Source of the DNA: Patescibacteria group bacterium
GTDB taxonomy: Bacteria > Patescibacteriota > Patescibacteriia > Magasanikbacterales > GWA2-37-8
Length of the DNA stretch: 64,000 bases
Reading direction: 5' to 3'
Assembly (NCBI GenBank): GCA_041651015.1
Contig: JBAZKA010000005.1
Location: 1,326-65,325 of the forward strand
Shown here piece by piece: positions 37,497 through 64,000 of the stretch. The first letter of the stretch is position 1. Every line of letters starts with the position of its first letter. The notes beneath the pieces are model-generated. The model did no database searches. It saw only the letters and a list, made by a program, of their open reading frames with translations, and was not told the DNA's origin. The position numbers and the translations under genes were made by a program.

Positions 37497-38171
37497 ATGG
37501 ACGAACCGCAAAACCGTTTTAGCAAAGAGCAGAAAATCGGCTTGGTTTTGCTGTCTTCTTTTGTCGTACTGGCGGTGACGCTCGGGTTGATTGAAATGCG
37601 TAATACCTTGTATAGTCCGTTTGCTTTGAATAATTCCATTCCGGCTATGATTGGGAGTGATGTGGATACGACCGACGCGTTGCGTTATCGTGATACCGAT
37701 GCTGACGGCCTGAATGATTTTGACGAATTATATGTTTATTCCACCAGCCCGTATTTGGCTGATACTGATTCGGACGGCTTGACCGACAAGCAAGAAGTTG
37801 AAGGTGGTAAAAATCCCAATTGCGCCGAAGGCAAAGATTGCAATGCGTCAATCGCGGAAAACGGTTCGGCCATAATCGCCACCAGTTCCACTGATGTGGC
37901 CGATACCAACACACTGTTTTCAAATTATGATGTGACATCAACCTTGGAAGCCATGCTCACTTCGCCGGATCAGATGAGAACTCTTTTGCTTGAATCCGGT
38001 TTGGCGCAATCAGTGGTGGATAAAATTTCCGATGATGATCTGACCAAAATGGCGTTGGAGATAATGTCTTCATCTACCATCTTGGATAGTATGGAAACCA
38101 CTTCCACTACAGTATCTGATGTGACGACCACGGCGAAATTTATCAATCAACTAATGAATGCTTCGCAATAA
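37497..38171 (+). CDS. Membrane-anchored protein with thrombospondin-type-3-like Ca-binding repeats
   Basis: N-terminal TM. DTDADGLNDFDE / DTDSDGLTDKQE repeats. Its 3' end overlaps the start of the giant gene. Confidence 0.55.
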   Translation: MDEPQNRFSKEQKIGLVLLSSFVVLAVTLGLIEMRNTLYSPFALNNSIPAMIGSDVDTTDALRYRDTDADGLNDFDELYVYSTSPYLADTDSDGLTDKQEVEGGKNPNCAEGKDCNASIAENGSAIIATSSTDVADTNTLFSNYDVTSTLEAMLTSPDQMRTLLLESGLAQSVVDKISDDDLTKMALEIMSSSTILDSMETTSTTVSDVTTTAKFINQLMNASQ

Positions 38172-44100: not shown

Positions 44101-46341
44101 ATGTGTTTGATTAATGCGCCGACCAACAGAAAGCGCTCCACTGCTTATCCTACTTTTAATATGGGAGGTGCCTCAATGCAGGCGGACTGGGGAAATTCCA
44201 CGGGTAGTCTTCAAGGTCCGAATGGTGAGGCGATTCTTTATTCCGGCTCAGCGACTGTTGTTTATAATTCTTTGGAAAATAGCATCGTCACCGGATGTTG
44301 GGACACGAGTGCTAATGCGTTTGATGCTATTTGGGGGTTGTCTATGTCAGATGGAGACGATTCGCAAGGTAAATATTGTCCAATAAATAAAAATACATTG
44401 AAAGAAGCCGGGTCAAATCTCGCTCGGATCAGTTTGCCGGTCGGGCAGACATATTTGCAGAGGAATGATATTGAGAGAATAGATGTTTATCTTGATAAAC
44501 GGTACTCTGGCGACGGTGGTGATGGTGCTGGTTGTAGTGACGGTTGGGTGAGTTTTTACAATGATTTACTTGACGAGAACGAGGATCAATCTTTTATCGT
44601 TAAAGAATGGTTTAGACCGGGTTGTACAAATTCAAGCTGGAGAAAAAAGAGTTTTGGTAGTACCCCTTATTCATTATTAACCGACTGGTATTCGTGGCAA
44701 TGGGAAGGGGGCAATCTCGACGGAGATGGTAATTGGGTTAAAGATAGCAGTATTGTGTACAATCTACAAAACGATACCTATGCGTCCATAACACAAAACA
44801 ATGATTCAGGCAATGGCACTGGTATTCGGATTATATTTGATTCCAAAAATAATTTCAGAGGTATCTGGGTTGATGGCGAAGATAACGCGTCTGGTAGTAC
44901 CGATATGGGATTTTTCTTTGTCATTACTCTACGTGATGGTCGTTGCGCGGAACAATTGCAAATTTCCGATGAAGATGATGAATATTTTGGTTTTAAACCA
45001 TTTACCGGAAGACTAGCACTTGGAGACTTATCTGTCGGTGGAGACTGGGCGGAGTTTGGATTGTCTGCCACTCGCACCAAAGAGATGGATAACCCAAATT
45101 ATGGTTTAAATAGTGATAGCTCACCGCGCACTCTTATCAATCCATTTGTTACGTTATTGGGCAAGTATGGTGCTAACGCCCACAGTCCGCAGGGTATCTC
45201 CGATCCAGATACGGCCATGACAATTCACGCTTCAGATTATGACGCCGGTGTGCCGTTGAGCGTAATGAGGGTGCAAGATGCACCAGCAAGCGAGTACGCG
45301 AGATTTTATGTTGAAAAAGTTAGTGACTGTGCGGCGAACCCGGGTGCACCATATTGTCAGATGCTTAAGCGAATGTTTGCTCGAGTTTATTCGGATAGAT
45401 TGCTGGTGCGCGTGTCGGACGGTGTTTACGCGTTCAAAGATGATCCGACGACATCCGATGGTACAATAGTGGTAAAAAACGGGACATCGGTAGATGACTT
45501 TGACTCTACTGCCGACGCTGCCAATCCGGCAACCGCAAAGACATTAAAATTAATTCTTTATCCGCCACGTGTGGCGGCTCCAACATCTGCCGGTTACGAG
45601 ATAGATGCAGTTGCAGTTAACGGACAAACATCCGGCAATGTGTACTTGGCATCTGGTGCGACTGCGGCGATTCAATTTTACGCGTGGGCTTCACCCAACC
45701 AAATGCCACTGCGCCGTGTCGCGGTCAGAAAAGGCGATGGCACGGATCCAGTAGCGGTTGAGAGCGAAAGTTTAAGTAATAAAAAACCGTCATGCAATAC
45801 AAAATTTTGTGATTGCAATCGCAATACGGGTACAGGTGGAGATGAATTTTGTATTCAGGACCTTAGTGAATTGATGCCTTGTAGTAATGATAGTGATTGC
45901 GACGGATTAACGAACAACACCGTATGCTCAGGCTCTTCCGCCTCCGGTTATACGACCTTTGGCTCGACTTCGGACACCGGCTGCAAAGCCGAACCCTATG
46001 ATTTCATTGTGGATTATTCTTGCCCAATGGGTGGCAGTGAAGGAGCAAAAGTTTATCCATCATCCGCCTCCACCTACGGCATAAATTGGAACACAGACAT
46101 TGTCGCCAATTTCGGTGATGTTCCTTACGTTTGCGCCTTCCAACCCAAAGTTCAGGTGTTGGATAATTGGGGTTGGTGCACTAGTCGAGCGCCAGGTACA
46201 AACGGTGGATGTAATTATTCTTCAAATGAATATGTGAATGGATACGGGTGTTATGCGGAGGATGTATATGATTATTGCGCTTTAAGTAAATCACAACCGT
46301 GGGTACTATATGGTGGTTACGTGGTCGTAGTGCCAATGTAA
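38158..46341 (+). CDS. Giant (2727 aa) Cys-rich extracellular/surface protein with polymorphic C-terminal module
   Basis: Uninterrupted 8.2-kb ORF. N-terminal signal/anchor (FGLSAILSIFVFVTIFGSLFFAP). Hundreds of Cys spaced as in disulfide-rich repeats. The C-terminal 125 aa are homologous to the downstream orphan ORF 47885-48259. Confidence 0.85.
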   Translation: MLRNNQRFMFFNTKKFGLSAILSIFVFVTIFGSLFFAPRPARAQMDANITNAFRAWQVKGTVQEVKQTLKEKAQFMFMTALMNGLNYFANKIAYDMGVWLASGDWGQGPFSSGKSFGSYMAQVAGDSLGEMLGSLSEDLGLNLCDLPDLRLDLALQLGFHFAYNEPKPKCSWQQLRAAYNPENVYSKYASREGLADRIGLGVNVKDTDMGIWFKSKETIDAYTEEQVAGASGEDARGEGISAMTEIISGKQVTPAAAMKQEMLAQTPSKQQEGRAADTRSMTNAALQKGATTVALNAVSTFVNTLLGTVVNNFVTKGMLPGGKTICNPGLSITGVGWNQCADSDSSDTLAANYYTSGSETDNRRAAQELFSELLAPKITTLENYDLATNMAECSEDNKSPDACVIDQSFMQILQQADLGDALTIKQAMERGLLHGDWKLISPNNAEETDKWTCAEEAYCYRNIKFLRQARILPVGFEMAAYIANASTPPSLSDVVNGFYDESSAYYHLINPQWVIKMPKMRCASYAYGAVAQDGVRVQECVDLQHCVGYNKDGTCQSWGYCMKEKPVWKFDAGYCDSIYSTCKAFTGADGDASYLTRTLDTTECNSDNVGCARYSRDKYYVNSSTVDWYSQLAVYNATDETFTNTGIHFNKSVSTCSAENDGCSAFKLASDNSTLLYLKKAPDYLGCYDADPSTAANSLALLNKKISNGVQWPMTLSGLNLIQPQDKKACANYAQVCLPEEVNCNYYTASYTGEKIPAKFTPAVVSDGLVTWNDQCDAVCNGYAAYQEMPSNYSSGQNLSYIIPSSGNSCIASQSGCTAFTNLNANSGGMEQKEYFSYLRLCALPDQTKQKNYTVYESSESGGYSIKTYTLVKNDSNNGPKQIFRDADEYAELAPLCSQTAYEAGTADPDCHQFIGDDASKYYAFLSKTIIATDQCTPYRLSSPELIALTSTDLRCAYDYDYYGVDRRAGSSTVEFKSNACYYMGTTVGTNGAGDTRTCNSNVESCRAYKGNAGNNVRLLLNEDFENADLTNWGVSASSASTVTIATSTESTQIDGHSLRVNVKTNSSAATAYAQLNGLPVTKGKAYTISFWAKGSAALKSVSLASADFEGSFTDSEINSSDVWKYYSFGPLNYNGSATTSILYLPLSATGGATQQLFIDNIRLTEVADYIYLVKNSLSVNALCDSDTSDNLPGEALGCTAYSDPLKNMFYLTGFNYLCREAAVGCTAVLDTYNTPDDPNAQAYNVWIAGASGGTASATVGGETFTCQVPTGETGCYTDIMGYTAAQLVAAGNVHLTSSTIYIPPDTTTSTPIYLVANQSATCKAENLGCEVLGKSTVSASGLSYKVDGILVVHYETFEETAVLNNPALYSDTLCKNEEAGCSAWTSGDSSYYFKKPNATCTYKTDKFISIEPPAAGVEIKSVNLKANSIGWVMQDTGICVRNELSSYGIVGSSIFGIGGFILNSGSHYMGRYCATDADCVIGTSTGTCKYVNQVPCYPASRKPSGEYQLWSSGNPVKYYNYVGTCPQEQSGCTEYVDHSSSDNNVCAMTGEVCTDDSDCETEGDTCVANEDSAYYLIDNEKLQAQEAACNGQVSQAEGCALLDNTNNPNKYWNTTSSYALSTSNDENLVTPVDKGNANDANTILKVKHDRECAEWAYCDFKQTYVDSETNETASRCYHLGVCQQASSAVGVSGRCAEGGVVTGSWLGKDKVLDKNYYQSLYSSWDSIDLSGYSIPFTYQIPDLRVRNVDDTNRLVYVTTTALCTDETDNGSACGSGGACYNGECLFNYIGPGNSVTSSRSISCRSYPEDSSPFSTSVLSDNTVWGDGGSSGGHLMSAIYKTGFENTNLCYDDSGELTNNKCDCSYDKFQTSGGDIFTQVGRSTASGYVCSGGSYNGKDCDGSDDIDTCGTGGTCSKVNSVSVMTGWQGYCMEKDLRQTINGTSNHRCLTWWPLELAPGTSDIWATDPSAGYEVGETDDRYMCLINAPTNRKRSTAYPTFNMGGASMQADWGNSTGSLQGPNGEAILYSGSATVVYNSLENSIVTGCWDTSANAFDAIWGLSMSDGDDSQGKYCPINKNTLKEAGSNLARISLPVGQTYLQRNDIERIDVYLDKRYSGDGGDGAGCSDGWVSFYNDLLDENEDQSFIVKEWFRPGCTNSSWRKKSFGSTPYSLLTDWYSWQWEGGNLDGDGNWVKDSSIVYNLQNDTYASITQNNDSGNGTGIRIIFDSKNNFRGIWVDGEDNASGSTDMGFFFVITLRDGRCAEQLQISDEDDEYFGFKPFTGRLALGDLSVGGDWAEFGLSATRTKEMDNPNYGLNSDSSPRTLINPFVTLLGKYGANAHSPQGISDPDTAMTIHASDYDAGVPLSVMRVQDAPASEYARFYVEKVSDCAANPGAPYCQMLKRMFARVYSDRLLVRVSDGVYAFKDDPTTSDGTIVVKNGTSVDDFDSTADAANPATAKTLKLILYPPRVAAPTSAGYEIDAVAVNGQTSGNVYLASGATAAIQFYAWASPNQMPLRRVAVRKGDGTDPVAVESESLSNKKPSCNTKFCDCNRNTGTGGDEFCIQDLSELMPCSNDSDCDGLTNNTVCSGSSASGYTTFGSTSDTGCKAEPYDFIVDYSCPMGGSEGAKVYPSSASTYGINWNTDIVANFGDVPYVCAFQPKVQVLDNWGWCTSRAPGTNGGCNYSSNEYVNGYGCYAEDVYDYCALSKSQPWVLYGGYVVVVPM

Positions 46342-48259: not shown

Positions 48260-48290
48260 AATATAAATTACGTAGATAATAAAAAATAAA

Positions 48291-49286: not shown

Positions 49287-49312
49287 GGGAGGGTAAAAAT
49301 GATGCAATTTAT

Positions 49313-51187: not shown

Positions 51188-51434
51188 GGGAGCCTCCTCA
51201 TGCAAATAGATGCTGTTTTGATACAAAAAATTGTCAAAGAAGTTAACTATATCAATTGAGTATATTGAAGCATAAAACAGTAGTGCGGTCAAGTATAATA
51301 AGGGGAAAAGTTCGGTGGCATTATTAGTTAAAACGCCTTTACCTATTGTGGATAAATCCCAATACTTTTAAACTTTGTCTTGCCGCGTCCTTTGTGCTAT
51401 AATAACATCATAAACGTAAGCCCGATTCGGCTTT

Positions 51435-54400
51435 ATGAATAATTCCCTCCTGAACAAGGGGAGATGGTTGTGGCAGAAAATTAAACCGCGAAGGCGGCTT
51501 GGTTTTGTTTCCATATTTTTGCTAATGTCGGTCTTTTTGTTCGCGATGTTTGTGGTGGGAATCCATCCGGCGTATGCCGATTTTGGCAGTACGCTTTCCG
51601 AGTGGTTAGGAAATTTAGTTTTGGGATTGGCGGCGACTTTCATGTCCATTACGGTTTTTATTTTGAAATTCGTCATTGAAATCGCCAGCTATAATCATTA
51701 TATCAACGCGCCGGCCGTCACTCTCGGCTGGGTGTTGGTGCGCGACGTCACCAACATGTTTTTTGTTTTGATTTTAATGGTGATCGCGTTTGGCACAGTT
51801 CTCGGCATAGAGCAATACGAATGGAAAAAATTATTGGTCAAGTTTGTCATGGCCGCCATACTGGTTAATTTTTCTCGTTTGATTTGCGGCGTCATCATTG
51901 ATGCGGCCCAAGTGTTTATGATGACTTTTATTTCCGGCGCGGCCGCGACCGCTGGCGGAAATTTGGTCAATGCTTTGCACATGAATGATATTTTAGCTTT
52001 TGCCACCGATGCCGACCCGAGCGCGTTGAGTACTGATATAAATGTTCTTGTTTCAGCAATAGTCGCTTGTATTTTTGCCTTTACCGCCATGGTGGTGATT
52101 GGCGCGTATCTACTCATGCTGATTGCACGCGTCATCGCGCTTTGGATTTGCATTATTTTGTCGCCGTTGGCTTTTGTGCTTGGCGTAATTCCCAAATTTC
52201 AATCTTACGCCAGCCAGTGGTGGACTGAATTTACCAACAATGTTTTGTCCGGGCCGGTGTTGGCATTTTTTTTATGGTTGGCTTTTGCCGTGGCCGGAGG
52301 CGCTAACATCCACGATGAATTCACCGGCGCCAATTCCGGCTATCCAATTACAGATGCGGAAACCGCCATGCAAGAGGCATCGACAGCCACCGGCGGCGAG
52401 CCGAGCATGAACCTTAACAAAGTTTTGCAATGGGAAAATTTAGCGAATTTTATTTTAGCGGCGGCATTGTTGCTGGCCGGCGTGAAAACCACGCAAAAAT
52501 TATCCGCGGCCGGAGCTGGTATGCTTGGCGCCGCGGCCGGCGCAGCCACTAAGTTTGCTTATGCGGCGTCCGGCGCCGCGGCCGGTTTGGCCGCCGCCAA
52601 GTGGACGGGGAAGACGGCAAAGGCCGTGGGAAAAGGTATTGCCATGAATGTGCCGTTAGTGGGAGGAAATGCATGGAAAGAACGGGGAGAAAATTTAGCG
52701 TTGAACGCGAAACTTGGGATGCAAGCAGGGAAGGATTTTTATAATAGACAAATACTTGAACGTGGGTCGCATGCCTTTGCTCGAACAAAGCCCGGCAAAT
52801 TCTTGGCAGCTGCTGGGGGTGTCGTTGGCCTGAATAAAGGAGATATTTCTAGTCAGTTTATGATTGGTACTAGGGCGGCGCAAATTAAAACGAAGAAAGA
52901 TATGCTGGAAAATCGTATTAAGCTTGCTGAAACATCTGTAAAGGAACCGGAAGATCTAAAACAAAAACAGGCTGATCTCAAGGCCAACGTTGAGCTCGGA
53001 AAACTAATAAAAGCCGGTGTTATTGCAAAACGTGATGAGCAGGCGTGGAAAAATCTTGAGGAGAAAATTGCGCCTGATAGTAAAGGTAGGGGTGAAAAAT
53101 TAGTTGACATGGCTGCCAGCATGCAAGCAAAGGCTGATTTGTTTGAATCTAAACACAAACAAGAACAACAAGTAAGGTTGTTATCCGCGAAAGAAGATGT
53201 TTTGCGGAAAAAAGCCGGTGAAACCGGCATTGGAGGCTACACGGTGGAAGCTGATAAAGCCAAAGCTGAACGCTTGGGGATTGAAAATGAAAAAATGGTG
53301 AAGGAGGCCGGCGGTATTGATAATTTAACTGATCAACAAAAATTAGAATTTCAAAAAAATAAACAATTTATTGATATTTCCGCGGCGCAAACAAAATTAA
53401 TTGAAGAACAAACTCAGGTCGCCGGTGAGCAAGCTAAACAGGTGTTGTTGACCGGTGCTGGCGAGGAATCCGGGCGCTTAGAAGGCATTCAAGGGCGCCA
53501 AGCTGAGTTGATGAAAGAAAAGGAGTTGATTACCCAAGATAATCGCGCGATTGAAGAAATTAGACAGCTAAAGCGTATAGAGGAGCTATTGCGGACAAGC
53601 GGAAGAATGCAAGATTTAAACAGCAGTTTGCATGGAAATAAAATTGAACTGGATGACGCGAAAATAGAAACCGATCGGGCGACTTCGGAACTAAACGCCA
53701 AAAGCTATGAGGGTAAAGGCCGAGATGATTTGGCGCGTTTGGAACACGCAAAATTTGCGAACAGTTATTTTAAGAAAATGCAGGAAAATTTTGCCGATTA
53801 TAGTTATAATGATTTTGCAACTGAAGCCCCGGCGCAATTTAAACGTGTTCAGGATGCCGCGGCAGCATATGATGGCGTGAAGGGGACAGGTAGTCCAGAC
53901 GAAGCCGAAAAAACGAAAGCGTACCAAAAAGAGGCGGCCAAAACCGCGAGCTTTGTAGCTCTGAGCATGCGTGACGCCTCAACTTACAAAGCAGTTGAAG
54001 ACGCGGCAACAAAGGTGATCCCTTACACCGGCGACAGGTCACCGGAAAACAGGCAAAATATTCTCGCCTCAATGATTAGCGGACGAGACATGAAAGGTAA
54101 GAATAGTGTTGAGCTTAATAGCGAATTAAGCGGTCTTAATAGAAATAATCAGCACCAAGTTAATGCCATGTTGAAAATTTTGCAAGACAACGCCAAGACA
54201 TTGGCCTCTAAGTCTGGCTATGCTTCAGTGGTATCTGGTGTCAAATATGATACGGTGAAGGGAAACTATTCTCTTGGTTATAATAAAGAAGATGCTGATT
54301 ATTATTCTACCCATGCCAATATGCGTGAGGCAACGAATGCCTACCACATAATCTATCAAGACAAGACAGGTGATCTCAACATCGACGTGCACAATGAAAA

Positions 54401-54659
54401 TGCTTTTATAAGTCAAGTTAAGAACGCGGATCAAAATAATGTGGGTCGCGTGTTCCTTCCCGCGTTAATGGCTGACTTGAATGAAAAAATGGAAGCCCTT
54501 GATCCTGCTAAGCTGGATGGATTCCTAAAACATGTAGCCGAAGGCATGACAGACGACAAAGCACTTAAAATTTTAATCAAACGCATGGAGAAAATTTTGA
54601 AAAAATCCGGTAAAACAGAGGCGGAAATTTTAAAGTATTGGAAAGATTCGCATAAGTAA
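51435..54659 (+). CDS. VirB6/TrbL-like polytopic membrane protein with about 700-aa C-terminal coiled-coil/charged extension
   Basis: About 330-aa N-terminal region with 6-7 TM helices in TrbL/VirB6-like spacing, Gly/Ala-rich hinge, then long Lys/Glu/Ala-rich alpha-helical tail. Confidence 0.6.
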   Translation: MNNSLLNKGRWLWQKIKPRRRLGFVSIFLLMSVFLFAMFVVGIHPAYADFGSTLSEWLGNLVLGLAATFMSITVFILKFVIEIASYNHYINAPAVTLGWVLVRDVTNMFFVLILMVIAFGTVLGIEQYEWKKLLVKFVMAAILVNFSRLICGVIIDAAQVFMMTFISGAAATAGGNLVNALHMNDILAFATDADPSALSTDINVLVSAIVACIFAFTAMVVIGAYLLMLIARVIALWICIILSPLAFVLGVIPKFQSYASQWWTEFTNNVLSGPVLAFFLWLAFAVAGGANIHDEFTGANSGYPITDAETAMQEASTATGGEPSMNLNKVLQWENLANFILAAALLLAGVKTTQKLSAAGAGMLGAAAGAATKFAYAASGAAAGLAAAKWTGKTAKAVGKGIAMNVPLVGGNAWKERGENLALNAKLGMQAGKDFYNRQILERGSHAFARTKPGKFLAAAGGVVGLNKGDISSQFMIGTRAAQIKTKKDMLENRIKLAETSVKEPEDLKQKQADLKANVELGKLIKAGVIAKRDEQAWKNLEEKIAPDSKGRGEKLVDMAASMQAKADLFESKHKQEQQVRLLSAKEDVLRKKAGETGIGGYTVEADKAKAERLGIENEKMVKEAGGIDNLTDQQKLEFQKNKQFIDISAAQTKLIEEQTQVAGEQAKQVLLTGAGEESGRLEGIQGRQAELMKEKELITQDNRAIEEIRQLKRIEELLRTSGRMQDLNSSLHGNKIELDDAKIETDRATSELNAKSYEGKGRDDLARLEHAKFANSYFKKMQENFADYSYNDFATEAPAQFKRVQDAAAAYDGVKGTGSPDEAEKTKAYQKEAAKTASFVALSMRDASTYKAVEDAATKVIPYTGDRSPENRQNILASMISGRDMKGKNSVELNSELSGLNRNNQHQVNAMLKILQDNAKTLASKSGYASVVSGVKYDTVKGNYSLGYNKEDADYYSTHANMREATNAYHIIYQDKTGDLNIDVHNENAFISQVKNADQNNVGRVFLPALMADLNEKMEALDPAKLDGFLKHVAEGMTDDKALKILIKRMEKILKKSGKTEAEILKYWKDSHK

Positions 54660-54667
54660 AACATATT

Positions 54668-55663
54668 ATGCAATCATTTCATCCAAAATTAATCGGTTCA
54701 AAAACATTTGAAGAATTGTTCAAGGATTTTTTTGAAACCGCGCGATATGATTCTGTGCAAATGGAGGTGACGAGATTGGAATTATTCAGTTTGTTTGGCG
54801 AGATGAGCATAACTGAGATTCAGGAGTATCGCCGGACTTATTGGCCATTTTATGTTTATGCCATTTGGTCAAATCCTTTGGATGTTCGCCCGGAAGTAAT
54901 GATAAAGAATATTGCGATTCAATTGCCCGATGCTGTGCGGCTGGGTTTTGATATTTTAGATAAAATTCTTTCATACGCGAATTTTCGTTTGACATTGGAG
55001 CCGGACATTCAATCATTTTTTGCCAAGACGCGCGACGCTTTGGAGAGATCCGACTGGCCGATCGGCGTATTGCCAAATGGTAAAATTTATACAATTGCCG
55101 ATTGCGTCAAAGAGGTTATGATGAATGAAAGTAGAGCGAGCAACAGTATGGAATATGCCGAGCTGTATCAGAAATTATCAAAGCTGATATTTCCAAACGG
55201 TTTAAATGATGAGTTGTATAAAAAAGAATATATTTATATTACGACTCACGAGGCTGTTGATAATTTGATCAAAATAATTACCGTGTTAACACAAAATTCA
55301 CCAGAGACCCTTACTCAATTAGTTGATCAATATGCACATCCGGAGATTTATGACCCTGATTATGGCATGAATATAAATATTAAAACTGAACCTGTGATGT
55401 CAAGTCAAGATGGCAAGCCTTCATCACCCATAACCCCACCCGCAAACCCTATGCCCCCAACTCCACCCCTCGTCAAACCCGCGCCCGCGGAAATCCGCGC
55501 GAAAATTGATGCCGCGTTTGAAAAAGACGCGCAAGGAAATTACAAAGATTTAGATGGTGTGTTTATTGTTTTGGGACGTGCGGCCGCTAAATACAACGAC
55601 CCAAAGATCGCCGAATTATATTATTTTGATGACAATGCCGGTGAGTTTAAATGGAATGTTTAA
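54668..55663 (+). CDS. Hypothetical protein with Pro-rich C-terminus (T4SS-cluster associated)
   Basis: 331 aa. PITPPANPMPPTPPLVKPAPA linker. Confidence 0.5.
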   Translation: MQSFHPKLIGSKTFEELFKDFFETARYDSVQMEVTRLELFSLFGEMSITEIQEYRRTYWPFYVYAIWSNPLDVRPEVMIKNIAIQLPDAVRLGFDILDKILSYANFRLTLEPDIQSFFAKTRDALERSDWPIGVLPNGKIYTIADCVKEVMMNESRASNSMEYAELYQKLSKLIFPNGLNDELYKKEYIYITTHEAVDNLIKIITVLTQNSPETLTQLVDQYAHPEIYDPDYGMNINIKTEPVMSSQDGKPSSPITPPANPMPPTPPLVKPAPAEIRAKIDAAFEKDAQGNYKDLDGVFIVLGRAAAKYNDPKIAELYYFDDNAGEFKWNV

Positions 55664-55664
55664 T

Positions 55665-56780
55665 ATGACAGATGAAGTTTTAATCCCAGTCAAAAAATTA
55701 GACGGCACGGTGGAAAAAATCACCATGGCCGAATTTCAGACTCGGCAAAAAAATAAACAGCGTGCCAAGACGGCCGTGGTAATTACGCAAAAACCAATTT
55801 CGCCGGCACAAACTGTCGTCATTCCCGCACCCACGACGCCAAAGACGGTTATCAATGAAAAAATTAAAGAAGAACCGGCGTTGGAAGAATTACCCAAGAC
55901 AACCGCTAATGCCCCGCGAGTCAGTCCGGATAGAAAAGCCGAGGCTGGGGAGATCGTTCGCAAATTAAATTTACAAATTTCATCTGATGCCAAAAATCGT
56001 TTGCTTGGTTTGGTTCAACTGCGCCTCAAAGATGTGCGCGGCGAGGAAGAAGTAAAAGAATGGCTCGTCCGTTCGGAAAATCAATATGGCATTGGTTTAG
56101 ATGCCGTGGCCGCGGATAAAGTTATCATGGCGGTTAATGATTTTATCAAAAAAAATATTCCCCAATCCGCTGAAGTTCCGGTTTTAAAAAAACCTCTCGG
56201 TGTGCCTAAAGCGCTTTTGAAAGAAGACCAAGAACCGTTCCCGGCCACATCATCCCCGATAAATTCGTTTGTGCATCGTAGCACGCCAGAGCCCCAAAGG
56301 GGCGAAGGTGGCCTTGGCTCGCCGAAGCAAAAAAGCGAAGGTGGCCGTAAATCTTTGGATGATTTGGTACGCGCCGAGTCCGTTAATATGGGTAATGATA
56401 TTTCCGGCCTGGTGGCGAAAAGAGAAATGCCGGCGCGGACAATGGTGCAAGATATTACGCCGGCCAAACCGGCCAATCTCGGGCCGGTGGAAGAAATTCG
56501 TTATTTCACGCTGACTGATTTTCGCCGGCTGTCCACCAACCCAAATGAAGCCGCCTCGCGTCTGGCGCAAAAATTTACGAATCTGCGGGACGAGTCGTAT
56601 ATTTTATTTATGAATGCTTTGGAAGCGTGGCGTTTGAGCCCGTTGTTTAATGATTATATTGGCGCTTCGGCCGCATCATTGAATATGAAAAAGAAAGTGG
56701 CGGAAAATATGGCTGATAAAAATAAAATTCAGATGAACGAAATTAAGGCCTTGATACAAATGGAGAAAGATTTGCTATAA
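55665..56780 (+). CDS. Hypothetical Lys/Pro-rich protein (T4SS-cluster associated)
   Basis: Start at MTDEVLIP (ATG 55665). Contains a GC-rich internal direct repeat (56290-56345; GEGGLGSPKQKSEGG). Confidence 0.5.
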   Translation: MTDEVLIPVKKLDGTVEKITMAEFQTRQKNKQRAKTAVVITQKPISPAQTVVIPAPTTPKTVINEKIKEEPALEELPKTTANAPRVSPDRKAEAGEIVRKLNLQISSDAKNRLLGLVQLRLKDVRGEEEVKEWLVRSENQYGIGLDAVAADKVIMAVNDFIKKNIPQSAEVPVLKKPLGVPKALLKEDQEPFPATSSPINSFVHRSTPEPQRGEGGLGSPKQKSEGGRKSLDDLVRAESVNMGNDISGLVAKREMPARTMVQDITPAKPANLGPVEEIRYFTLTDFRRLSTNPNEAASRLAQKFTNLRDESYILFMNALEAWRLSPLFNDYIGASAASLNMKKKVAENMADKNKIQMNEIKALIQMEKDLL

Positions 56781-56784
56781 TACT

Positions 56785-57222
56785 ATGGCGATGCAAACAC
56801 AATTTGTCGTGCCGCAATTCATTGATGTGGAAGACAAGATTTTTGGACCGGTGACGGCACGCCAGTTTGTGATTTTGTTGGTGTCCGGCTTGCTCATTGT
56901 ACTTGCTTATAAGTTGGCGGATTTTGCTTTATTTGTTTTTATCTTGGTGATATTGGGCGGCGGATCGCTGGTCATCGCTTTTGTCAAAGTCAACGGCCAA
57001 CCATTTCATTATGTAATTTTGAACATTATTCAGACATTGCGTCGTCCATCGCTCAGAATTTGGAATAAAGTTTTTGACACGGCGGATTTGAAACGCATAC
57101 GCGAAGAGGCGAAAGTAGTGGTGCCGGAAGCGGCTAAACCGATTCAGCGAATATCTTACAGCCGTTTGCGTGATTTATCCTTGACGGTCAATACCGGCGG
57201 ATATTATAAATCAGAAGACTAA
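56785..57222 (+). CDS. Small two-TM membrane protein, VirB3/PrgI-like by position and topology
   Basis: FGPVTARQFVILLVSGLLIVLAYKL...FVFILVILGGGSLVIAFV. Immediately precedes the VirB4 ORFs, as VirB3-type genes do. Confidence 0.4.
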   Translation: MAMQTQFVVPQFIDVEDKIFGPVTARQFVILLVSGLLIVLAYKLADFALFVFILVILGGGSLVIAFVKVNGQPFHYVILNIIQTLRRPSLRIWNKVFDTADLKRIREEAKVVVPEAAKPIQRISYSRLRDLSLTVNTGGYYKSED

Positions 57223-57224
57223 CT

Positions 57225-57911
57225 ATGAAAAATAATAATGCGGTCAAAAAACGCGCGGCCATCCCATCTTCACAAAAGAATTTGGCTTTGGCGGAAATTA
57301 AAAATGACACCATCTTGATGAAAGATGGGACTTTGCGCGCCGCTTTGGTCGTGTCCAGTATTAATTTTGCCCTCAAGAACGAGGATGAACAGCAGGCTAT
57401 TGTTAGCGCCTATGTTTCATTTTTGAACGGCTTGGACCATCCTTTACAAATTGTCATCCAATCTCGGCAACTAAATATTAAACCATATTTAGAAAAGTTG
57501 GCGCAAAAAGAACGCGAACAGCCCAACGAATTATTGCGCATGCAAATTGCCGACTATAGGTCCTTTGTCGGCGAGCTGGTCAGCCTGGGAAAAATTATGA
57601 GCAAAAATTTTTACGTGATTGTGCCATATGATCCGCTCTCAAATAAGAAACGCGGTTTTTGGGCGCGCGCGTCCGAAGTTTTAAACCCCGCCATCACCGT
57701 GCACCTGAAAGAAGAAAGATTTTTGAAACGAAAATATGATTTAGATATGCGCGTCCGCCAAATTGAATCTGGCCTCACCAGCATGGGTTTGGAAGTGGTG
57801 CGCTTGGATACGCAATCGTTGATTGAATTATTTTATTCAACTTACAACCCGGACATTTCATTGTCCGAGCCGCTCGCGCCAATCGGGGATTTTAATATAG
57901 AAAACGCCTGA
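57225..57911 (+). CDS. VirB4/TrbE-family ATPase, N-terminal domain encoded as a separate ORF
   Basis: ILMKDGTLRAALVVSSINFALKNEDEQQAIVSAYVSFLNGLDHPLQIVIQSRQLNIKPYL, ...NFYVIVPYDP..., ...EVVRLDTQSLIELFYSTYNPD. This matches the canonical N-terminus of Gram-positive-type VirB4 (PrgJ/TcpF class). Confidence 0.7.
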   Translation: MKNNNAVKKRAAIPSSQKNLALAEIKNDTILMKDGTLRAALVVSSINFALKNEDEQQAIVSAYVSFLNGLDHPLQIVIQSRQLNIKPYLEKLAQKEREQPNELLRMQIADYRSFVGELVSLGKIMSKNFYVIVPYDPLSNKKRGFWARASEVLNPAITVHLKEERFLKRKYDLDMRVRQIESGLTSMGLEVVRLDTQSLIELFYSTYNPDISLSEPLAPIGDFNIENA

Positions 57912-57916
57912 TTAAT

Positions 57917-59797
57917 ATGGCCTTCAAACCATCATCAATAAATAAAAAAGAAGAAAAAAAATCAACCGGGCGTTTAGCCATGGAAACTTCGGCCATCAAA
58001 CAGAGTACGGCCGAAGAAATGGCCACGCTGGAAGAGGAGCGGATTTATCGCGAGGGCGTAATTTCCATTCGTGATTTAGTGGCGCCGTCCGCGTTTCGCG
58101 TGGAATCAAGTTTTGTTCAGCTCGGCGATGTTTTTTGCCGTACGCTTTTCATCACCGCGTATCCGCGCTACATCTCCATCGGTTGGGCCTCGCCGATTAT
58201 CAACATGTCGGCCACGATGGATGTGGGCATGTTTTTCTATCCGATTAAATCCGCGATAATTTTGAAACAATTAAAAAATAAAGTCGGCGCCTTGGAGGCG
58301 CAAATAAATTCCGATACTGAAAAGGGCGCCCCGCGCGACCCGATTCGCGAAACGGCTTTGCGCGATATAGAACAATTGCGCGACAACCTGACTCAAGGAA
58401 CCGAACACTTTTTCCAATTTTGTTTTTATGCCACGGTTTATGCTAAGAGCAAGGAAGAATTGGACCGGACATCCGAAGATATAGAAAATATTTTTGGCGG
58501 CAAACTAATAATTACGCGTAAGGTTTTGTATCAAGCCGAGCAAGGCTTTAATTCCACTTTGCCGATTGCGAACGACGAACTTTTTATTTCTTTCAACATG
58601 AATTCGTCGCCGATTGCCGCCTCGTTCCCGTTTATCTCGGCCGAGCTGACTTCGGATGATGGTATTTTGTACGGTATCAATCGCCACAACAATAGTTTGA
58701 TTTTGTTTGATAGATTTTCCCTGCAAAACGCCAATATGGTGGTCTTTGCCACCTCGGGCGCGGGCAAAAGTTATACTATTAAATTGGAAATTCTGCGCAC
58801 GATGATGATGGGTGTGGACGTGATTGTCATTGACCCGGAAATGGAATACAAACATTTGAGCGACGCGGTTGGGGGGACGTATATCAATATTTCGCTTTCA
58901 TCCGAAGCTAAGATCAATCCTTTTGATTTGCCTCGTCCGATGGGGATGGAAATTTCCACCGAGGATGTCATCCGGAGCGCGGTGATTACCGTTAAAGGTT
59001 TACTCCGCATCATGCTTGGCGGTTTATCCGTGGAGCAGGACGCGATTATTGATCGGGCTTTGATTGAAGCGTTTGCCAAAAAAGATATTACGCCGGATGC
59101 GGATTTGGCCACCGTTCGTCCGCCGATTATGCAGGATTTGGTGGAAGTTTTGGAAGGCATGCAAGGTTCGGGCGAGTTGGTGCTCAAATTGCAAAAATAC
59201 ACTGATGGCACATTTGCCGGCTTGTTTAATTCGCCGACCAATGTGGATATGAAAAATCAATTGGTGGTATTTTCAGTCCGAGATTTGGAAGAAGAACTTC
59301 GTCCGATTGCCATCTATACCATTATCAACTACATTTGGAACGTGGTGCGGTCCGAACGCAAAAAAAGAATTCTGGTGATTGATGAGGCTTGGTGGCTGAT
59401 GATGCATGAGGACTCGGCGAAATTTATTTTTTCTCTGGTCAAACGCGCGCGTAAATATTATTTGGGCGTCACCACCATCACTCAGGATGTAAACGACTTT
59501 TTGAAGTCTCAATACGGACAAGCGATCGTCACGAACTCGGCTTTACAGTTATTACTTCGCCAGTCGCCGGCTTCCATTGATTTGATTCAAAAAGTATTTG
59601 TCTTGACCGACAGTGAAAAATATCTATTATTGGAATCGGGTGTGGGCGAAGGGATTTTCTTTGCCGGACTAAAGCATGCGGCTATCAAAGTGGTGGCGTC
59701 ATACACCGAAGACCAAATTGTCACCACCAATCCTGAACAGCTTTTGGCCATAGAAAAAGCCAAAAAAGAATTTTCCGCCCAAGGCGGATCAGCTTAG
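57917..59797 (+). CDS. VirB4/TrbE-family conjugal transfer ATPase, central and C-terminal ATPase part
   Basis: RTLFITAYPRYISIGWASPIINMSATMD. Walker A FATSGAGKSYTIK. Walker B ILVIDEAWWLM. Different frame from 57225-57911, separated by TGA + 5 nt. Confidence 0.85.
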   Translation: MAFKPSSINKKEEKKSTGRLAMETSAIKQSTAEEMATLEEERIYREGVISIRDLVAPSAFRVESSFVQLGDVFCRTLFITAYPRYISIGWASPIINMSATMDVGMFFYPIKSAIILKQLKNKVGALEAQINSDTEKGAPRDPIRETALRDIEQLRDNLTQGTEHFFQFCFYATVYAKSKEELDRTSEDIENIFGGKLIITRKVLYQAEQGFNSTLPIANDELFISFNMNSSPIAASFPFISAELTSDDGILYGINRHNNSLILFDRFSLQNANMVVFATSGAGKSYTIKLEILRTMMMGVDVIVIDPEMEYKHLSDAVGGTYINISLSSEAKINPFDLPRPMGMEISTEDVIRSAVITVKGLLRIMLGGLSVEQDAIIDRALIEAFAKKDITPDADLATVRPPIMQDLVEVLEGMQGSGELVLKLQKYTDGTFAGLFNSPTNVDMKNQLVVFSVRDLEEELRPIAIYTIINYIWNVVRSERKKRILVIDEAWWLMMHEDSAKFIFSLVKRARKYYLGVTTITQDVNDFLKSQYGQAIVTNSALQLLLRQSPASIDLIQKVFVLTDSEKYLLLESGVGEGIFFAGLKHAAIKVVASYTEDQIVTTNPEQLLAIEKAKKEFSAQGGSA

Positions 59798-59827
59798 GAC
59801 TGAAATGTATATAAAATAAATTTTAAT

Positions 59828-60421
59828 ATGACCACACTTCGTTCCCGAATATTTATTCTCATCAGTTTGATTGTTCTCATAATATTGGCCATCAGCATTG
59901 GCTTGATTGTGATTTCCAAGAAAAAACAGGCCGCTACTGTGGCCGAGACAACTCCAACCACGACTGCCGGCACGATTGATTCCACGAATTTTCCGGCGCA
60001 AATTACCACGCCGGCCACGGTTATTCCTTCCGGCACGACCGTAAAGCCGGCCACCACTGAAGAAACCATGAAAAATGCGGCTAAACAATTGGCTAAAATT
60101 TTTGTGGAGCGGTATGGCTCATATTCATCGGACGCAAGCGGTGAAAATATCCGTTCGGTGGAACCATTGGTGACGAAAGATTTGTGGGCAATCTTGAGCC
60201 AGCGCTTGAACGTAAAATACAACGGTGATTTTATCGGCGTCACCACCAAGGTTATCGCAACCAATGTGACGGATTTTTCAGCGTCCAGCGCAACAGTTGA
60301 ACTTAATTCCCAGAGGACGACCACCAAGGGTGCTACCGTGGCCGAGAGCACTCAAGCGGCGACGGTTAAACTGGTTAAATCCGGTGATAACTGGCTGGTG
60401 GATGATATCAAGTGGAAGTAA
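59828..60421 (+). CDS. Thr-rich membrane-anchored protein (possible VirB8-like periplasmic-domain protein; weak)
   Basis: N-terminal TM, Thr/Ala-rich linker, about 110-aa globular C-terminal domain. Confidence 0.45.
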   Translation: MTTLRSRIFILISLIVLIILAISIGLIVISKKKQAATVAETTPTTTAGTIDSTNFPAQITTPATVIPSGTTVKPATTEETMKNAAKQLAKIFVERYGSYSSDASGENIRSVEPLVTKDLWAILSQRLNVKYNGDFIGVTTKVIATNVTDFSASSATVELNSQRTTTKGATVAESTQAATVKLVKSGDNWLVDDIKWK

Positions 60422-60535
60422 TTTTTATTATTCAATTTTCCTCCCCCTATTAGGGGGAGGACAGAGGAGGGGGTATGTTTTGTTGACCTCACCCTCTGTC
60501 CCTCTCCTAAAAGGAGAGGGATTTAATTAGTTTAT

Positions 60536-61054
60536 ATGAGGAAAAAATTATTGGTCGCAATTCTAATTATCGCGTTGCTCGTGTTGGTCGGCCTAATTAC
60601 CTGGCAATTTTACGGTCGTTCGTGGTGGGAAATAAAAAAAGAAAAGATTTCTATTGGTTTGTCTGAGCCAAATTTTCCTTGGCGCGATAGAACTCAAGAT
60701 GAATTAAATACACTATATCCACAAATTAAAAACGCCGATGTGGCGACTCGGACCACGCCCGAGCAAACGTATGCCAAATTTAGAGAAGGTTTGAAAAATA
60801 ATGATTTGCCAACTGTATTGGATCAATTATTCAAAGATTCTTCGCGCTATGAATCAAATGTCGCGGCTATCTCTAAGGCGTATAATGAAAATAAATTTAC
60901 TTCAATTTATGAAAAATATCCGGAGGTGATAACAAGTACTCTACAGGGTGATTCGCTGGCGCAGTATGTATTTATATATAACAACGGGGCATCTTCGCAT
61001 CATGTTGATTTCAATAAAAATAGCAGCGGAGATTGGAAAATAACGCAATATTAA
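60536..61054 (+). CDS. Membrane-anchored hypothetical protein
   Basis: N-terminal TM plus about 140-aa domain. Preceded by a cluster of GC hairpins (60440-60517). Confidence 0.5.
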   Translation: MRKKLLVAILIIALLVLVGLITWQFYGRSWWEIKKEKISIGLSEPNFPWRDRTQDELNTLYPQIKNADVATRTTPEQTYAKFREGLKNNDLPTVLDQLFKDSSRYESNVAAISKAYNENKFTSIYEKYPEVITSTLQGDSLAQYVFIYNNGASSHHVDFNKNSSGDWKITQY

Positions 61055-61065
61055 TAATATATTAT

Positions 61066-63666
61066 ATGAGGAGGGTAATTTTCTTTGCCGTATTGATTGT
61101 TATAATTGTATCCATAGCAACTATATCTAAACAGGCAAGTTCCTTTGATACTTATGTGGCGCACCCGCATTTGACCGAGGCGGCAATAAATTTATTTAAT
61201 CAAAAAGCGGGCAATAAAATAAACGATGAAGAAAAACAAAATATTATTCAAGGGTCAATTGATGAGGATACACCGGCTCGTTGGATGAATCATTTTTATA
61301 ACCCGAATACGAACAAGGGGTTATATGGTTTTTCCTCAGCTAAAAAATGGGTCAATTATCCAGACTCGCAAGAAATGTACGCTGTCGGCGACCAATCATG
61401 GGACGCGGCTTTATATGCCTATGCGGATAACGATTATAATACGGCCTTTTTGGCTTTGGGGCATGTTTTGCATTTGATTGAAGATATGGCGGTGCCGGCC
61501 CACACACGTCTTGATTCGCATCCCGAGGGCGACCCGTTGGAATCATGGGCCGAAAAATATAATCCAGGTTTTGCAAGAGAAGATATAGAATATTACGATA
61601 ATTTAGATGCATATTTTTATAATTTAGCCAGTATTTCAAATAATAATTTTTTTAGTGAAGATACGATAGATAAGAAAGATATAAATCTAAATAATATTAA
61701 AGGAGTAATATATAGTGGCGTTCCGCTAAATTGTGTCCAAGAATTATATGATAATAAGAAATATTGTAAAATAGCCGTTGAAGAAGATCTCGTTGACTCA
61801 AATAATAATAAATATTTTATAACAGATAAAATTAACTCCGACTACTATTCCATTCTCGCGCCAAAAGCCGTATCATACGCGGCCGGAGTAATCCAATTAT
61901 TTTTTGAACAAGGCGAGGCAACACGCGCTAAACATGATGCAATTAGAGCCAAGTATAACGCGTATACAAATGCCTTAACAAAATTATTTATTAATCAAAA
62001 CGGGAAACTTGTTTCCGCAGTTGACCTTTTGAAAAATCCGCAAACCTCGCAAAAGGTCGCTGATGTAATTATCCAATCGGTCAATAAAACTCAGGCGGAA
62101 ACCACCAAAGAAATTATCAAGATCTTAACTCCGGCCACCACGACAAAAACTGCCGATGTATTGGGTGAAAAAATTATTCCGCCTTTGGAAAATGATGTAT
62201 CTTCAGCTACCTCAACCACAGATGATTCCGTCAAAACAATATATTTATTTACCGGTTCGCCCGCTTATGTTTTTGAACCATGGCCGGCTTTGATTTTTGA
62301 TTCAATATTTTCTTCAACGCTTTATACTTCGTCAACATTGGTCTCGGTATTTGGCGAGTGCGCCAGCGGGACACAATCAATTTTTGTATATCGCTCGGCC
62401 GAGTCATCGTCAACTCCTGACTATATGGCGAACGCCACTACCACGATAAATAATATTAACTGGTCGTCAGAACTAATTCCGCAATACGGCATCAATTTAT
62501 ATTATTTTTCCGCGCTCGGCGATGATGGACGTCCGACTTCGTCGGCCGTTGGGCCGGCGCAAATCATTTTAGATTACTTTGCTCCGTCGTCCACCGCGCT
62601 CGCGGCCGAAATAATTTCCACGTCCACCACTTCCACTGTAATTCATTTAAATCTTTCGGCCGAAGAAAATATCTCTGTTCCAGTTGCGTATGATTTGGAT
62701 TTTTCGGCCAGCGGCACTGAATGGGCTAACCTTCTATCAGTATCCACTAGTACATTTTATGATTTTACGGCGACCAGTTCGGGCGATTATGTGTTTCGTT
62801 TGCGGGCAAGCGACGCGCTTGGCAACGTGTCTGACTATGTATTCGCGACGACCACTGTGGAATTAGGACCGATTGAATATGAGTACATCCATCTGAGCGG
62901 GGAACAAATTGATGATGAATTAATTTTAACCGCGACCGGCAGTCCGTATATTTTGGAGCATTATATTGTCCCGGCTGGTAAAATTTTACGGCTTCAACCC
63001 GGCACAATAGTCAAAGGATTAAACCGCGCTTCGTATATGGAAATATATGGTTCAATGTATGTTGAAGGGGCGGGGAGCGGCCGCGTTGCGTTTACGTCAG
63101 TCCAAGATAGAAGTTTTGGCGATGATAGAACCAACACGATGACTCTTGGCACAAACAATGAACCAGCAGCGTGGGATTGGGGTGGCCTGATATTCTATGG
63201 CGGTAGTTATGGCGAGATAAACTACGCAGATTTTCGTTATAGCGGTTCAGACCCGTTCCTGTGCCTAACCGCGCGGGCTACCTGTGGTTTCTATAGTAAA
63301 ACAATTTATGCCGGCGATGGCGTCATCTTGTCAATTGATAATTCCACCTTTTCATACGGCGGCAACTTGTATATTAAAGCGGAATTTTATCAATCAATTC
63401 CGGAAGCGAACTCAATTTCCATAACCAATACTATTTTTGATGGCGCTAATTCCTATAGTAATTACGGTTCCGGAATTGGCGGAATATATATTGTACGCGG
63501 TGCGTTGCATTTAGATAATGTGCAATTTTTAAATTTAGAATATGGAATATATTCCGACTCGCGTGATTGGAATTGGCCGGCGATCACAATAAACAATGTT
63601 TCATCGGCGAATTTCATTAACGTGACAACGCCGGTTTATCCGGAGGGAATATTGACGCTTGAGTGA
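61066..63666 (+). CDS. Membrane-anchored zinc-dependent phospholipase C (PLC/nuclease P1 fold)-like protein with C-terminal beta-helix region
   Basis: YVAHPHLTEAAI..., HFYNPNTNKG (compare B. cereus PLC HFYDPDNGKTY), ALGHVLHLIEDMAVPAHT (compare LGLSLHYLGDVNQPMHA). C-terminal Gly/Asn/Ser-rich repeats typical of parallel beta-helix. Start at internal ATG 61066. Confidence 0.65.
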   Translation: MRRVIFFAVLIVIIVSIATISKQASSFDTYVAHPHLTEAAINLFNQKAGNKINDEEKQNIIQGSIDEDTPARWMNHFYNPNTNKGLYGFSSAKKWVNYPDSQEMYAVGDQSWDAALYAYADNDYNTAFLALGHVLHLIEDMAVPAHTRLDSHPEGDPLESWAEKYNPGFAREDIEYYDNLDAYFYNLASISNNNFFSEDTIDKKDINLNNIKGVIYSGVPLNCVQELYDNKKYCKIAVEEDLVDSNNNKYFITDKINSDYYSILAPKAVSYAAGVIQLFFEQGEATRAKHDAIRAKYNAYTNALTKLFINQNGKLVSAVDLLKNPQTSQKVADVIIQSVNKTQAETTKEIIKILTPATTTKTADVLGEKIIPPLENDVSSATSTTDDSVKTIYLFTGSPAYVFEPWPALIFDSIFSSTLYTSSTLVSVFGECASGTQSIFVYRSAESSSTPDYMANATTTINNINWSSELIPQYGINLYYFSALGDDGRPTSSAVGPAQIILDYFAPSSTALAAEIISTSTTSTVIHLNLSAEENISVPVAYDLDFSASGTEWANLLSVSTSTFYDFTATSSGDYVFRLRASDALGNVSDYVFATTTVELGPIEYEYIHLSGEQIDDELILTATGSPYILEHYIVPAGKILRLQPGTIVKGLNRASYMEIYGSMYVEGAGSGRVAFTSVQDRSFGDDRTNTMTLGTNNEPAAWDWGGLIFYGGSYGEINYADFRYSGSDPFLCLTARATCGFYSKTIYAGDGVILSIDNSTFSYGGNLYIKAEFYQSIPEANSISITNTIFDGANSYSNYGSGIGGIYIVRGALHLDNVQFLNLEYGIYSDSRDWNWPAITINNVSSANFINVTTPVYPEGILTLE

Positions 63667-63667: not shown

Positions 63668-64000
63668 GTGTTTAAACAATTTTTACTCTTAATCAAAGCC
63701 ACACTTTTTCCAATCTATTGCGTGGAATGCGGCGCGGAAGGCGAGTGGTGGTGCAAAAAATGTTTAGCCCGACAGGAAAAATGTTTTGGCGAGTTTGAGG
63801 CCAGTGCGTCATCGTTGGATGGCGCTTTTGCCTTTTTACCATACTTGGAGCAGGTGCCAGCTGGTAAATTAATCCGCGCGTTTAAATATAATTTCGCCTC
63901 GGATATTGAGAATGTTTGGCATAAGGTAATTGTTCACAGCGAAAAATTTGATAATTTTGCCAAACAAATATCAACGGAAAATTGTATGATTGTGCCAGTC
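63668..64000 (+). CDS. ComF-family protein (partial, continues beyond window); GTG/TTG start
   Basis: Double CxxC (PIYCVECGAEGEWWCKKC) as in ComFC/amidophosphoribosyltransferase-like proteins. No stop before the window end. Confidence 0.5.
   Translation, partial: MFKQFLLLIKATLFPIYCVECGAEGEWWCKKCLARQEKCFGEFEASASSLDGAFAFLPYLEQVPAGKLIRAFKYNFASDIENVWHKVIVHSEKFDNFAKQISTENCMIVPV

Follow-up and report, generated by a model that had tools for sequence, protein, structure and literature searches.

Type IV secretion systems (T4SSs) of the Patescibacteria were surveyed in 3,035 genomes by Quinonero-Coronel et al. (2025, PMC12102498), who described a monophyletic VirB4 clade nested in the MPF_FATA class. 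In that survey, TrsD was the commonest companion of VirB4, PrgI/VirB3, VirB6 and VirB2-like pilins were also recorded, and VirB8 homologues were almost exclusively those of ABY1. The ksgA gene was located near virB4, as were comF, recG and radA in ABY1, and a relaxase gene was near virB4 in only 15 of 2,474 cases. Many VirD4 homologues were encoded far from virB4, VirB1 was often unlinked to it and no adhesin was found for the system. In Southlakia epibionticum, the SEML1_0006-0019 cluster, which is without coupling protein and relaxase, is essential for epibiotic growth (Wang et al., 2023, PMC10633639). The essentiality of this T4SS is also given in the nomenclature review PMC12857230; before the Patescibacteria T4SS, none had been reported as essential to its own carrier bacterium. 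Here, a 64-kb stretch of DNA (the window) from Candidatus Magasanikbacteria (Patescibacteria, class ABY1) was analysed. A tightly packed block of seven genes on the same strand (51435-60421) was interpreted, with a probability of about 0.82, as the inner-membrane core of a Patescibacteria-type T4SS that is chromosomal, vertically inherited and derived from conjugation machinery of the Gram-positive MPF_FATA type. Conservation was assessed by comparing the window proteins with 80 species-level ABY1 loci (L001-L080) that carry a related VirB4. The genes of the block are as follows.

51435..54659, + strand: VirB6/TrbL-like multi-spanning membrane protein of 1074 amino acids (aa), assigned from transmembrane segments, position and weak profile links.
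54668..55663, + strand: conserved cytoplasmic protein of 331 aa, without transmembrane segment, in the same position in 29 of 80 loci and fast-diverging.
55665..56780, + strand: conserved cytoplasmic protein of 371 aa, directly upstream of PrgI in 72 of 80 loci.
56785..57222, + strand: PrgI family protein (VirB3-like small membrane protein), PF12666, 39.4 bits against a gathering score of 27.
57225..57911, + strand: TrsD-like protein, the free-standing counterpart of the VirB4 N-terminal region, NF041427 (TrsD/TraD), E = 5.9e-8.
57917..59797, + strand: VirB4 ATPase, the T4SS signature protein, NF045971 (CD1110 family), 355.9 bits against a cut-off of 325.
59828..60421, + strand: VirB8/PrgL-like protein of 197 aa, with one N-terminal transmembrane helix, a Thr-rich linker and an NTF2-type domain.

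The cluster is a further example of the described Patescibacteria T4SS and no new kind of system. It shares with the known examples a chromosomal location, a VirB4 of probable MPF_FATA ancestry, TrsD, PrgI/VirB3, a likely VirB6 and VirB2-like pilin genes, the lack of a nearby relaxase and the ksgA neighbourhood; the nearby comF gene and the VirB8 homologue are both as in ABY1. An earlier analysis of the window (the original prediction) had proposed a chromosomal, non-conjugative-looking T4SS in a member of an epibiotic group, in agreement with PMC12102498 and PMC10633639. The locus differs from the described ones in that it has one long pilin gene (488 aa) at a distance of 36 kb instead of an in-cluster array, and no gene for a VirB1-like peptidase or lysozyme follows virB4. 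It also differs by a VirB6 tail of ~700 aa, by two cytoplasmic proteins encoded between VirB6 and PrgI, by a recurrent giant Cys-rich upstream neighbour and by an inserted pair of genes that includes one for a phospholipase C (PLC)-like protein.

Two Gram-positive systems are informative for comparison. The Prg/Pcf system of Enterococcus faecalis pCF10, the MPF_FATA prototype, has the collinear order PrgH-PrgI-PrgJ-(PrgK)-PrgL. PrgJ belongs to the same NCBIfam family as the window VirB4, to which it is 24% identical (PrgJ residues 222-772, E = 1e-40), PrgL is homologous to the VirB8-like protein, and the gene of the large adhesin PrgB is upstream of the channel genes, in a position comparable to that of the giant protein here. 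pCF10 differs from the window in that it conjugates, possesses the PrgK hydrolase, the PcfC coupling protein, the PcfG relaxase and oriT, and encodes VirB4 as a single polypeptide. In the staphylococcal Trs systems of pGO1/pSK41, a separate small TrsD is encoded just before the VirB4 homologue TrsE, as here. These systems differ by being plasmid-borne and conjugative, with a relaxase and a coupling protein, and by having no VirB6 homologue (PMC12102498).

The window VirB4 is 90% identical to that of Candidatus Magasanikbacteria/Magasanikiibacteriota metagenome-assembled genomes and 66-80% identical to those of Uhrbacteria, Kerfeldbacteria and other Patescibacteria of the same group. In the related loci the genes follow one order on one strand: VirB6-like, 331-aa, 371-aa, PrgI, TrsD, VirB4, 197-aa VirB8-like and comFC. 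The VirB6-like protein was detected in 56 of the 80 loci, the 331-aa protein in 29, the 371-aa protein in 72, PrgI in 75, TrsD in 77, VirB4 in all 80 and the 197-aa protein in 70; a second sample carries a gene order identical to that of the window. All genes of the block are intact. VirB4 is 66-90% identical across the 80 ABY1 species, and for the same two genomes the identity of VirB4 is 77% against 56-59% for KsgA, a higher conservation that fits strong purifying selection. The divergence of VirB4 tracks taxonomy and the flanking housekeeping genes are the same across species.

The best VirB4 profile was that of the CD1110 family (356 bits), followed by the VirB4 of Mycoplasma integrative conjugative elements (280), TraC-F (207), VirB4_CagE (115) and CedB (53). 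Judged by these profile scores, VirB4 would be of the Gram-positive MPF_FATA type. A grouping with archaeal or FtsK-like ATPases, which the original prediction had named as evidence against itself, was not indicated: the Gram-positive conjugative families scored best and the archaeal CedB weakly. In Pfam, PF19044 (E = 4.8e-30), PF12846 and PF01935 were matched, and the nucleotide-binding motifs are a P-loop ATSGAGKS (read from the translation) and a Walker B motif ILVIDE. The TrsD-like protein also matches the N-terminal parts of VirB4_plasma (103-233) and CD1110 (20-95), as well as TraC_F_IV (E = 4.7e-4). The original prediction had listed VirB4 as two open reading frames (ORFs), and these correspond to TrsD and VirB4. 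A frameshift artefact was considered for this split and ruled out by the conservation of the two-gene state; of the 80 related loci, 75-77 have one gene for TrsD and another for VirB4, which makes the split a native one comparable to that of TrsD/TrsE in staphylococci. PrgI adjoins VirB4 in 75 of the 80 loci (41-77% identity), and its score above the Pfam gathering threshold bears out the small VirB3/PrgI-like protein first proposed.

The structure of the 197-aa protein was predicted from 40 homologues with a mean predicted local distance difference test score (pLDDT) of 84. In the model, a membrane helix at the N terminus is followed by a Thr-rich linker, which is disordered, and by a curved sheet of four strands against which three helices are packed. 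The profile of the family aligns to PrgL (E = 5.9e-5), its sole match among 24 pCF10/Tn916 transfer proteins. The NTF2-like VirB8 fold that had been anticipated for the product of the gene at 59828 was thus confirmed. One N-terminal hydrophobic anchor was found in each of the products of the genes at 59828, 60536 and 61033. The window is a clean and well-conserved ABY1/Magasanikbacteria example of the system, with a defined seven-gene core and a structure-supported VirB8 assignment.

The 1074-aa protein likely belongs to VirB6, as suggested by its membrane segments, its gene position and remote profile matches. At least seven transmembrane-like hydrophobic segments were found at residues ~23-350, and the gene is upstream of PrgI-VirB4 in 56 of the 80 loci. 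Eight of 53 VirB6-like orthologues matched TrbL PF04610 (best E = 6.5e-5, below threshold) and nine matched CD3337/EF1877, a Gram-positive mobilome membrane family (best E = 1e-5, below cut-off), which was also faintly matched by the window copy (E = 4e-4). Below threshold, TrbL PF04610 was also matched by the further relatives P0168, P0169 and P0179; the TrbL matches span most of the model (positions 2-185 of 215). The family thus reaches the TrbL/VirB6 and CD3337/EF1877 profiles, if weakly; failure in such searches was the other outcome that the original prediction had set against itself. Searching a large protein database with a profile of the VirB6 alignment gave at least 19 close matches, some of them carrying PF19590. 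With the N-terminal domain, an exhaustive search gave 16,333 matching clusters at 50% identity; the best 150 of these relatives were all close and nearly all 900-1900 aa long, and no bridge to canonical TrbL was among them.

The tail of the VirB6-like protein (residues ~420-1074, window 52700-54659) comprises about 650-700 aa and is hydrophilic, charged and proline-poor. Its sequence is unconserved even where the VirB4 proteins of two genomes share 90% identity, and its presence and length are kept (total protein 900-1900 aa). The tail is fast-evolving and probably cytoplasmic; the latter is suggested by the positive-inside rule, because a lysine-rich stretch directly follows the last membrane segment. 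A coiled coil had been attributed to it, and a crude heptad score did not rise above that of shuffled sequences; ‘extended VirB6’ is a better label than coiled-coil tail. The extended VirB6 paralogues of the Rickettsiales (PMC12857230, PMC7648143) likewise combine a VirB6 membrane domain with a large hydrophilic C-terminal extension. They differ by belonging to a Gram-negative MPF_T system and by occurring as several paralogues, and their likeness to the window protein is one of layout.

For the 371-aa gene, the most likely start is 55665, not the mechanical ORF start at 55554; the public gene call is also of 371 aa. The protein has a conserved C-terminal domain. Nothing consistent was found for the 331-aa and 371-aa proteins in Pfam (30 and 45 orthologues) or in PDB profile searches, and hhalign gave no match for either among the 24 pCF10/Tn916 proteins.

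ORFs of at least 300 aa in the window were scanned against Pfam families. No match was obtained among them for relaxase, VirD4/type IV coupling protein (T4CP) or integrase families, as the original prediction had stated for relaxase and VirD4, and no flanking tRNA or att structure was found around the block in the window. Among the cluster proteins, no Pfam or NCBIfam match was found for the outer-membrane core components VirB7, VirB9 and VirB10, as in monoderm systems. The chromosomal context is given by ksgA, RF1, rodA and gyrB upstream of the block and comFC downstream, the remaining window being ordinary chromosome with gyrB, RF1, rodA/ftsW, ksgA, uvrA, ribosomal protein L19 and two tRNAs. 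The latter were the only hits of an Rfam scan. The ORFs first listed are all present on the + strand at their stated coordinates; the nine ORFs between 51435 and 63666 have a spacing of 1-30 nucleotides (nt), save for a gap of 114 nt before 60536. The block is set apart from the upstream genes by a strong bidirectional hairpin terminator pair (50534-50632), and one promoter-like site precedes it.

51375..51403, + strand: promoter-like site (TTGTCT, 17 nt, TG-TATAAT), 32 nt 5′ of the first gene of the block; weak, from a consensus scan only.

Three genes outside the block were also considered as possible parts of the apparatus.

13220-14002, + strand: DsbA, directly upstream of the pilin-domain gene, PF13462 and PF01323.
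14005..15471, + strand: Cys-containing protein of 488 aa with a VirB2-type T4SS pilin domain, PF18895 (T4SS_pilin), 30.6 bits against a gathering score of 26.6.
38158..46341, + strand: secreted Cys-rich protein of 2727 aa, a candidate adhesin, with a CBM_4_9 domain and a recurrent T4SS neighbour.

The DsbA and pilin-like genes had been tied to the apparatus in the original prediction, and this link was strengthened by the T4SS_pilin match above threshold and by the more distant loci L077-L080, in which homologues of the pilin-domain protein are encoded 1.5-6 kb downstream of VirB4. In L078 (Kerfeldbacteria, 14621-15638), the order DsbA then pilin is found as well, just downstream of VirB4. The pairing suggests a disulfide-dependent maturation of the pilin-like protein. 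The adjacency of the giant Cys-rich protein, also pointed out originally, proved to be recurrent: a homologue of its C-terminal part ends at most ~2 kb upstream of the VirB6-like gene in 19 of the 44 loci with visible upstream sequence (L001, L005-L007, L009, L011, L013-L015, L019, L022-L024, L038, L043, L047, L065, L078 and L080). The adjacency extends to the most distant loci, L078 and L080. Between the giant protein and the T4SS block, the window has 5 kb of cassettes and toxin-antitoxin genes.

In this stretch (45900-50520), a unit of ~1.9 kb is repeated in tandem. Each unit consists of the last ~120 codons of the 2727-aa protein, a hairpin, a lipoprotein gene with D/S/T repeats on the minus strand and a spacer of 75 nt, with 97% identity between copies. 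In front of each later cassette is a toxin-antitoxin pair, with its stop codon overlapping the start of the cassette. For the cassette at 47885-48259 this pair is HicB/HicA (47447-47888); MntA/HepT (49313-49962) stands before a truncated cassette that is fused to a HEPN domain (49959-50264), and another nucleotidyltransferase gene (50254-50520) comes next.

On the model of the pCF10 Prg/Pcf and R388 systems, the membrane channel would be formed by the VirB6-like protein. PrgI and the VirB8/PrgL-like protein would anchor and scaffold the ATPase, split here into TrsD and VirB4, and VirB4 would power assembly and transport. The pilin-domain protein (14005-15471), made with the help of DsbA, may form an extracellular fibre, and the giant Cys-rich protein may act as an adhesin. 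The two cytoplasmic proteins and the long, lysine-flanked VirB6 tail are candidates for a cytoplasmic docking side. As no coupling protein, relaxase or integrase is encoded nearby, the system is most likely non-conjugative. By analogy with the Saccharibacteria, whose homologous cluster is needed for growth on the host (PMC10633639), a role in contact or exchange with a host bacterium is more likely.

Several points weigh against the interpretation of the block as a T4SS core with such a role. The window copy of the VirB6-like protein has no Pfam match and passes no curated threshold, it has no detectable similarity to pCF10 PrgH (no match with hhalign), and the profile of its N-terminal domain matched no PDB sequence, solved VirB6 included. 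No VirB1-type hydrolase (lytic transglycosylase, CHAP, lysozyme or M23) was matched in the window ORFs scanned. The MPF_FATA type of VirB4 was read from profile scores. A coupling protein or a relaxase could be encoded outside the 64-kb window, and the tight linkage to comFC could point instead to a DNA-related role. The proposed function is extrapolated from the Saccharimonadia, a different class, and there are no cultured Magasanikbacteria.

A more far-reaching and rather unlikely proposal is that the ABY1 T4SS core works as one unit with two unrecognized partners, namely the giant protein on the one hand and the VirB6 tail with the cytoplasmic proteins on the other. The giant protein, which has spare C-terminal cassettes here, may in that case supply the adhesin, or host-range determinant, required by T4SSs of the Gram-positive type, and the tail and the two cytoplasmic proteins may replace the missing coupling protein as a substrate-docking platform. 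If this were true, the operon link with comFC would mean a machine that moves nucleic acid or nucleotides between host and epibiont. Leads on how the system works without a coupling protein are offered by the near-universal comFC linkage, the recurrent giant Cys-rich neighbour and the fast-evolving VirB6 tail.

The comFC gene had been missed in the original prediction. In the window it starts directly after the gene of the 877-aa PLC-like protein.

~63668..64000, + strand, running off the window: 5′ part of comFC (double zinc ribbon and phosphoribosyltransferase-type competence protein), identified by tblastn to the comFC of L002 (39% identity).

Its orthologues in L001 and L002 carry the Pfam domains DZR_2 and Pribosyltran, and the full length is 229 aa in L085. 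The distance between comFC and the VirB8-like gene is less than 100 bp in ~50 of the 80 loci and less than 450 bp in ~60, and comFC and the T4SS core look like a single operon. Further downstream, a minus-strand gene of 522 aa matches the relatives. The comFC linkage is an argument for a DNA-uptake (competence) machine resembling Helicobacter ComB or archaeal Ced, which would take up DNA of the host and pass it on to ComFC and the rest of the competence pathway: comFC directly follows the VirB8-like gene in most of the 80 loci, and also in the window once the insertion is set aside. The comF, recG and radA neighbourhood of virB4 in ABY1 (PMC12102498), the weak match of VirB4 to CedB (E = 3e-14) and the inability of Patescibacteria to make nucleotides de novo (PMC10633639) point the same way. 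However, the CedB match is far weaker than the matches to conjugative VirB4 proteins, and adjacency alone does not demonstrate a shared pathway. In Southlakia, competence requires type IV pili and ComEC, and deletion of comEC abolishes competence and leaves viability unaffected, whereas the T4SS is essential (PMC12857230); the essential role of the T4SS there is therefore not transformation. A DNA-uptake machine was considered unlikely for the window.

The two genes between the VirB8-like gene and comFC lie outside the conserved T4SS block.

60536..61054, + strand: singly membrane-anchored protein of 172 aa, constantly paired with the PLC-like protein.
61033..63666, + strand: surface or secreted zinc PLC-like protein of 877 aa, with a likely start at 61066.

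The 877-aa protein comprises an N-terminal anchor, a PLC domain (~residues 40-300), a Ser/Thr-rich region and a C-terminal region. Its match to PF00882 (Zn_dep_PLPC) was 22.0 bits, below the gathering score of 26.8, and several homologues carry PF00882 in precomputed annotation. In fold comparisons, the domain was assigned to the PLC/P1-nuclease superfamily, nearer to PLC than to nucleases. An S1/P1-type nuclease, considered on account of the fusion of relatives to lamin-tail and thermonuclease domains, was thereby rejected as its closest match; a nuclease or other phosphodiesterase activity is conceivable. H44, D79, H87, H144, H147, D151, H157, H163 and E170 are invariant in 80 homologues and are taken as tri-zinc ligands, their allotment to individual zinc sites being by analogy. 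Of the zinc PLC-like beta-helix protein first described, the PLC-like fold and the zinc ligands were confirmed, and the beta-helix was seen as Pfam domains in homologues, not in the window copy. The identity to Bacillus cereus PC-PLC (1AH7), Listeria PlcB (8CQM) and clostridial alpha-toxin (1OLP) is 18-20%. Unlike these enzymes, the 877-aa protein is membrane-anchored, has ~550 extra residues (Ser/Thr-rich, FN3-like, beta-helix in relatives) and is accompanied by the 172-aa partner. Multidomain surface proteins of Patescibacteria make up the large family to which the PLC-like domain belongs.

A rival reading, in line with the putative lipolytic effector of the original prediction, is that the PLC-like protein is a dedicated T4SS effector or extracellular component and the 172-aa protein a second VirB8 analogue. 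Both genes are indeed on the same strand inside an operon-like block, between the VirB8-like gene and comFC and behind a gap of 114 nt only; the arrangement is present in two independent samples, the PLC fold and the zinc ligands are real, and scavenging of host lipids would fit candidate phyla radiation (CPR) biology. Against this, no homologue of either protein was found in any of the 80 related T4SS loci. In three other genomes (L081, L082 and L086) the pair is found among unrelated genes, with no T4SS within the available flanks (10 kb), and in one metagenome-assembled genome the pair and the T4SS are on different contigs. The pairs elsewhere consist of a 171-172-aa protein followed by an 815-894-aa PLC-like homologue, and the window 172-aa protein is 51% identical to the 172-aa protein that precedes the PLC-like homologue of L081. 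No relation was found between the 172-aa protein and the VirB8-like family, so it was not retained as a VirB8 analogue. The N-terminal hydrophobic anchors of both proteins are typical of Sec export, by which the pair is probably exported, and the membership of the PLC-like domain in the surface-protein family also speaks against an effector. An effector role is thus very unlikely, and a tempting assignment is removed. Because comFC directly follows the VirB8-like gene in the closest relatives and here follows the 877-aa gene, the pair is a 3.2-kb insertion; the gene comparisons identify the two proteins as a putative independent surface-enzyme pair, inserted in this lineage between the VirB8-like gene and comFC. 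In L081 (4957-12670) and L086 (2-7281), a protein of ~1240 aa without Pfam annotation precedes the pair, and the three may form a larger conserved surface-protein module.

A transfer module belonging to an integrative conjugative element, or what is left of one after decay, is a highly improbable reading of the block: all its recognizable parts are homologous to Gram-positive conjugation proteins and toxin-antitoxin pairs lie just upstream, but relaxase, T4CP, integrase and flanking tRNA or att structure were not found in the window, the flanking housekeeping genes are constant across species, VirB4 diverges with taxonomy and is more conserved than KsgA, the genes are all intact and relaxases near virB4 are as rare as the survey found (15 of 2,474 cases, PMC12102498).

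Two further observations concern other parts of the window. An ORF of 211 aa on the minus strand (50657-51292) points away from the T4SS block; neither a homologue in the 80 related loci nor a family match was found for it, and it may be lineage-specific or no real gene. Among glycosyltransferase genes, a PD-(D/E)XK nuclease-family gene was found with a gene for a BRO-N domain protein nearby (2476-2859 and 7141-7959), both of which are typical of mobile or phage-derived DNA.

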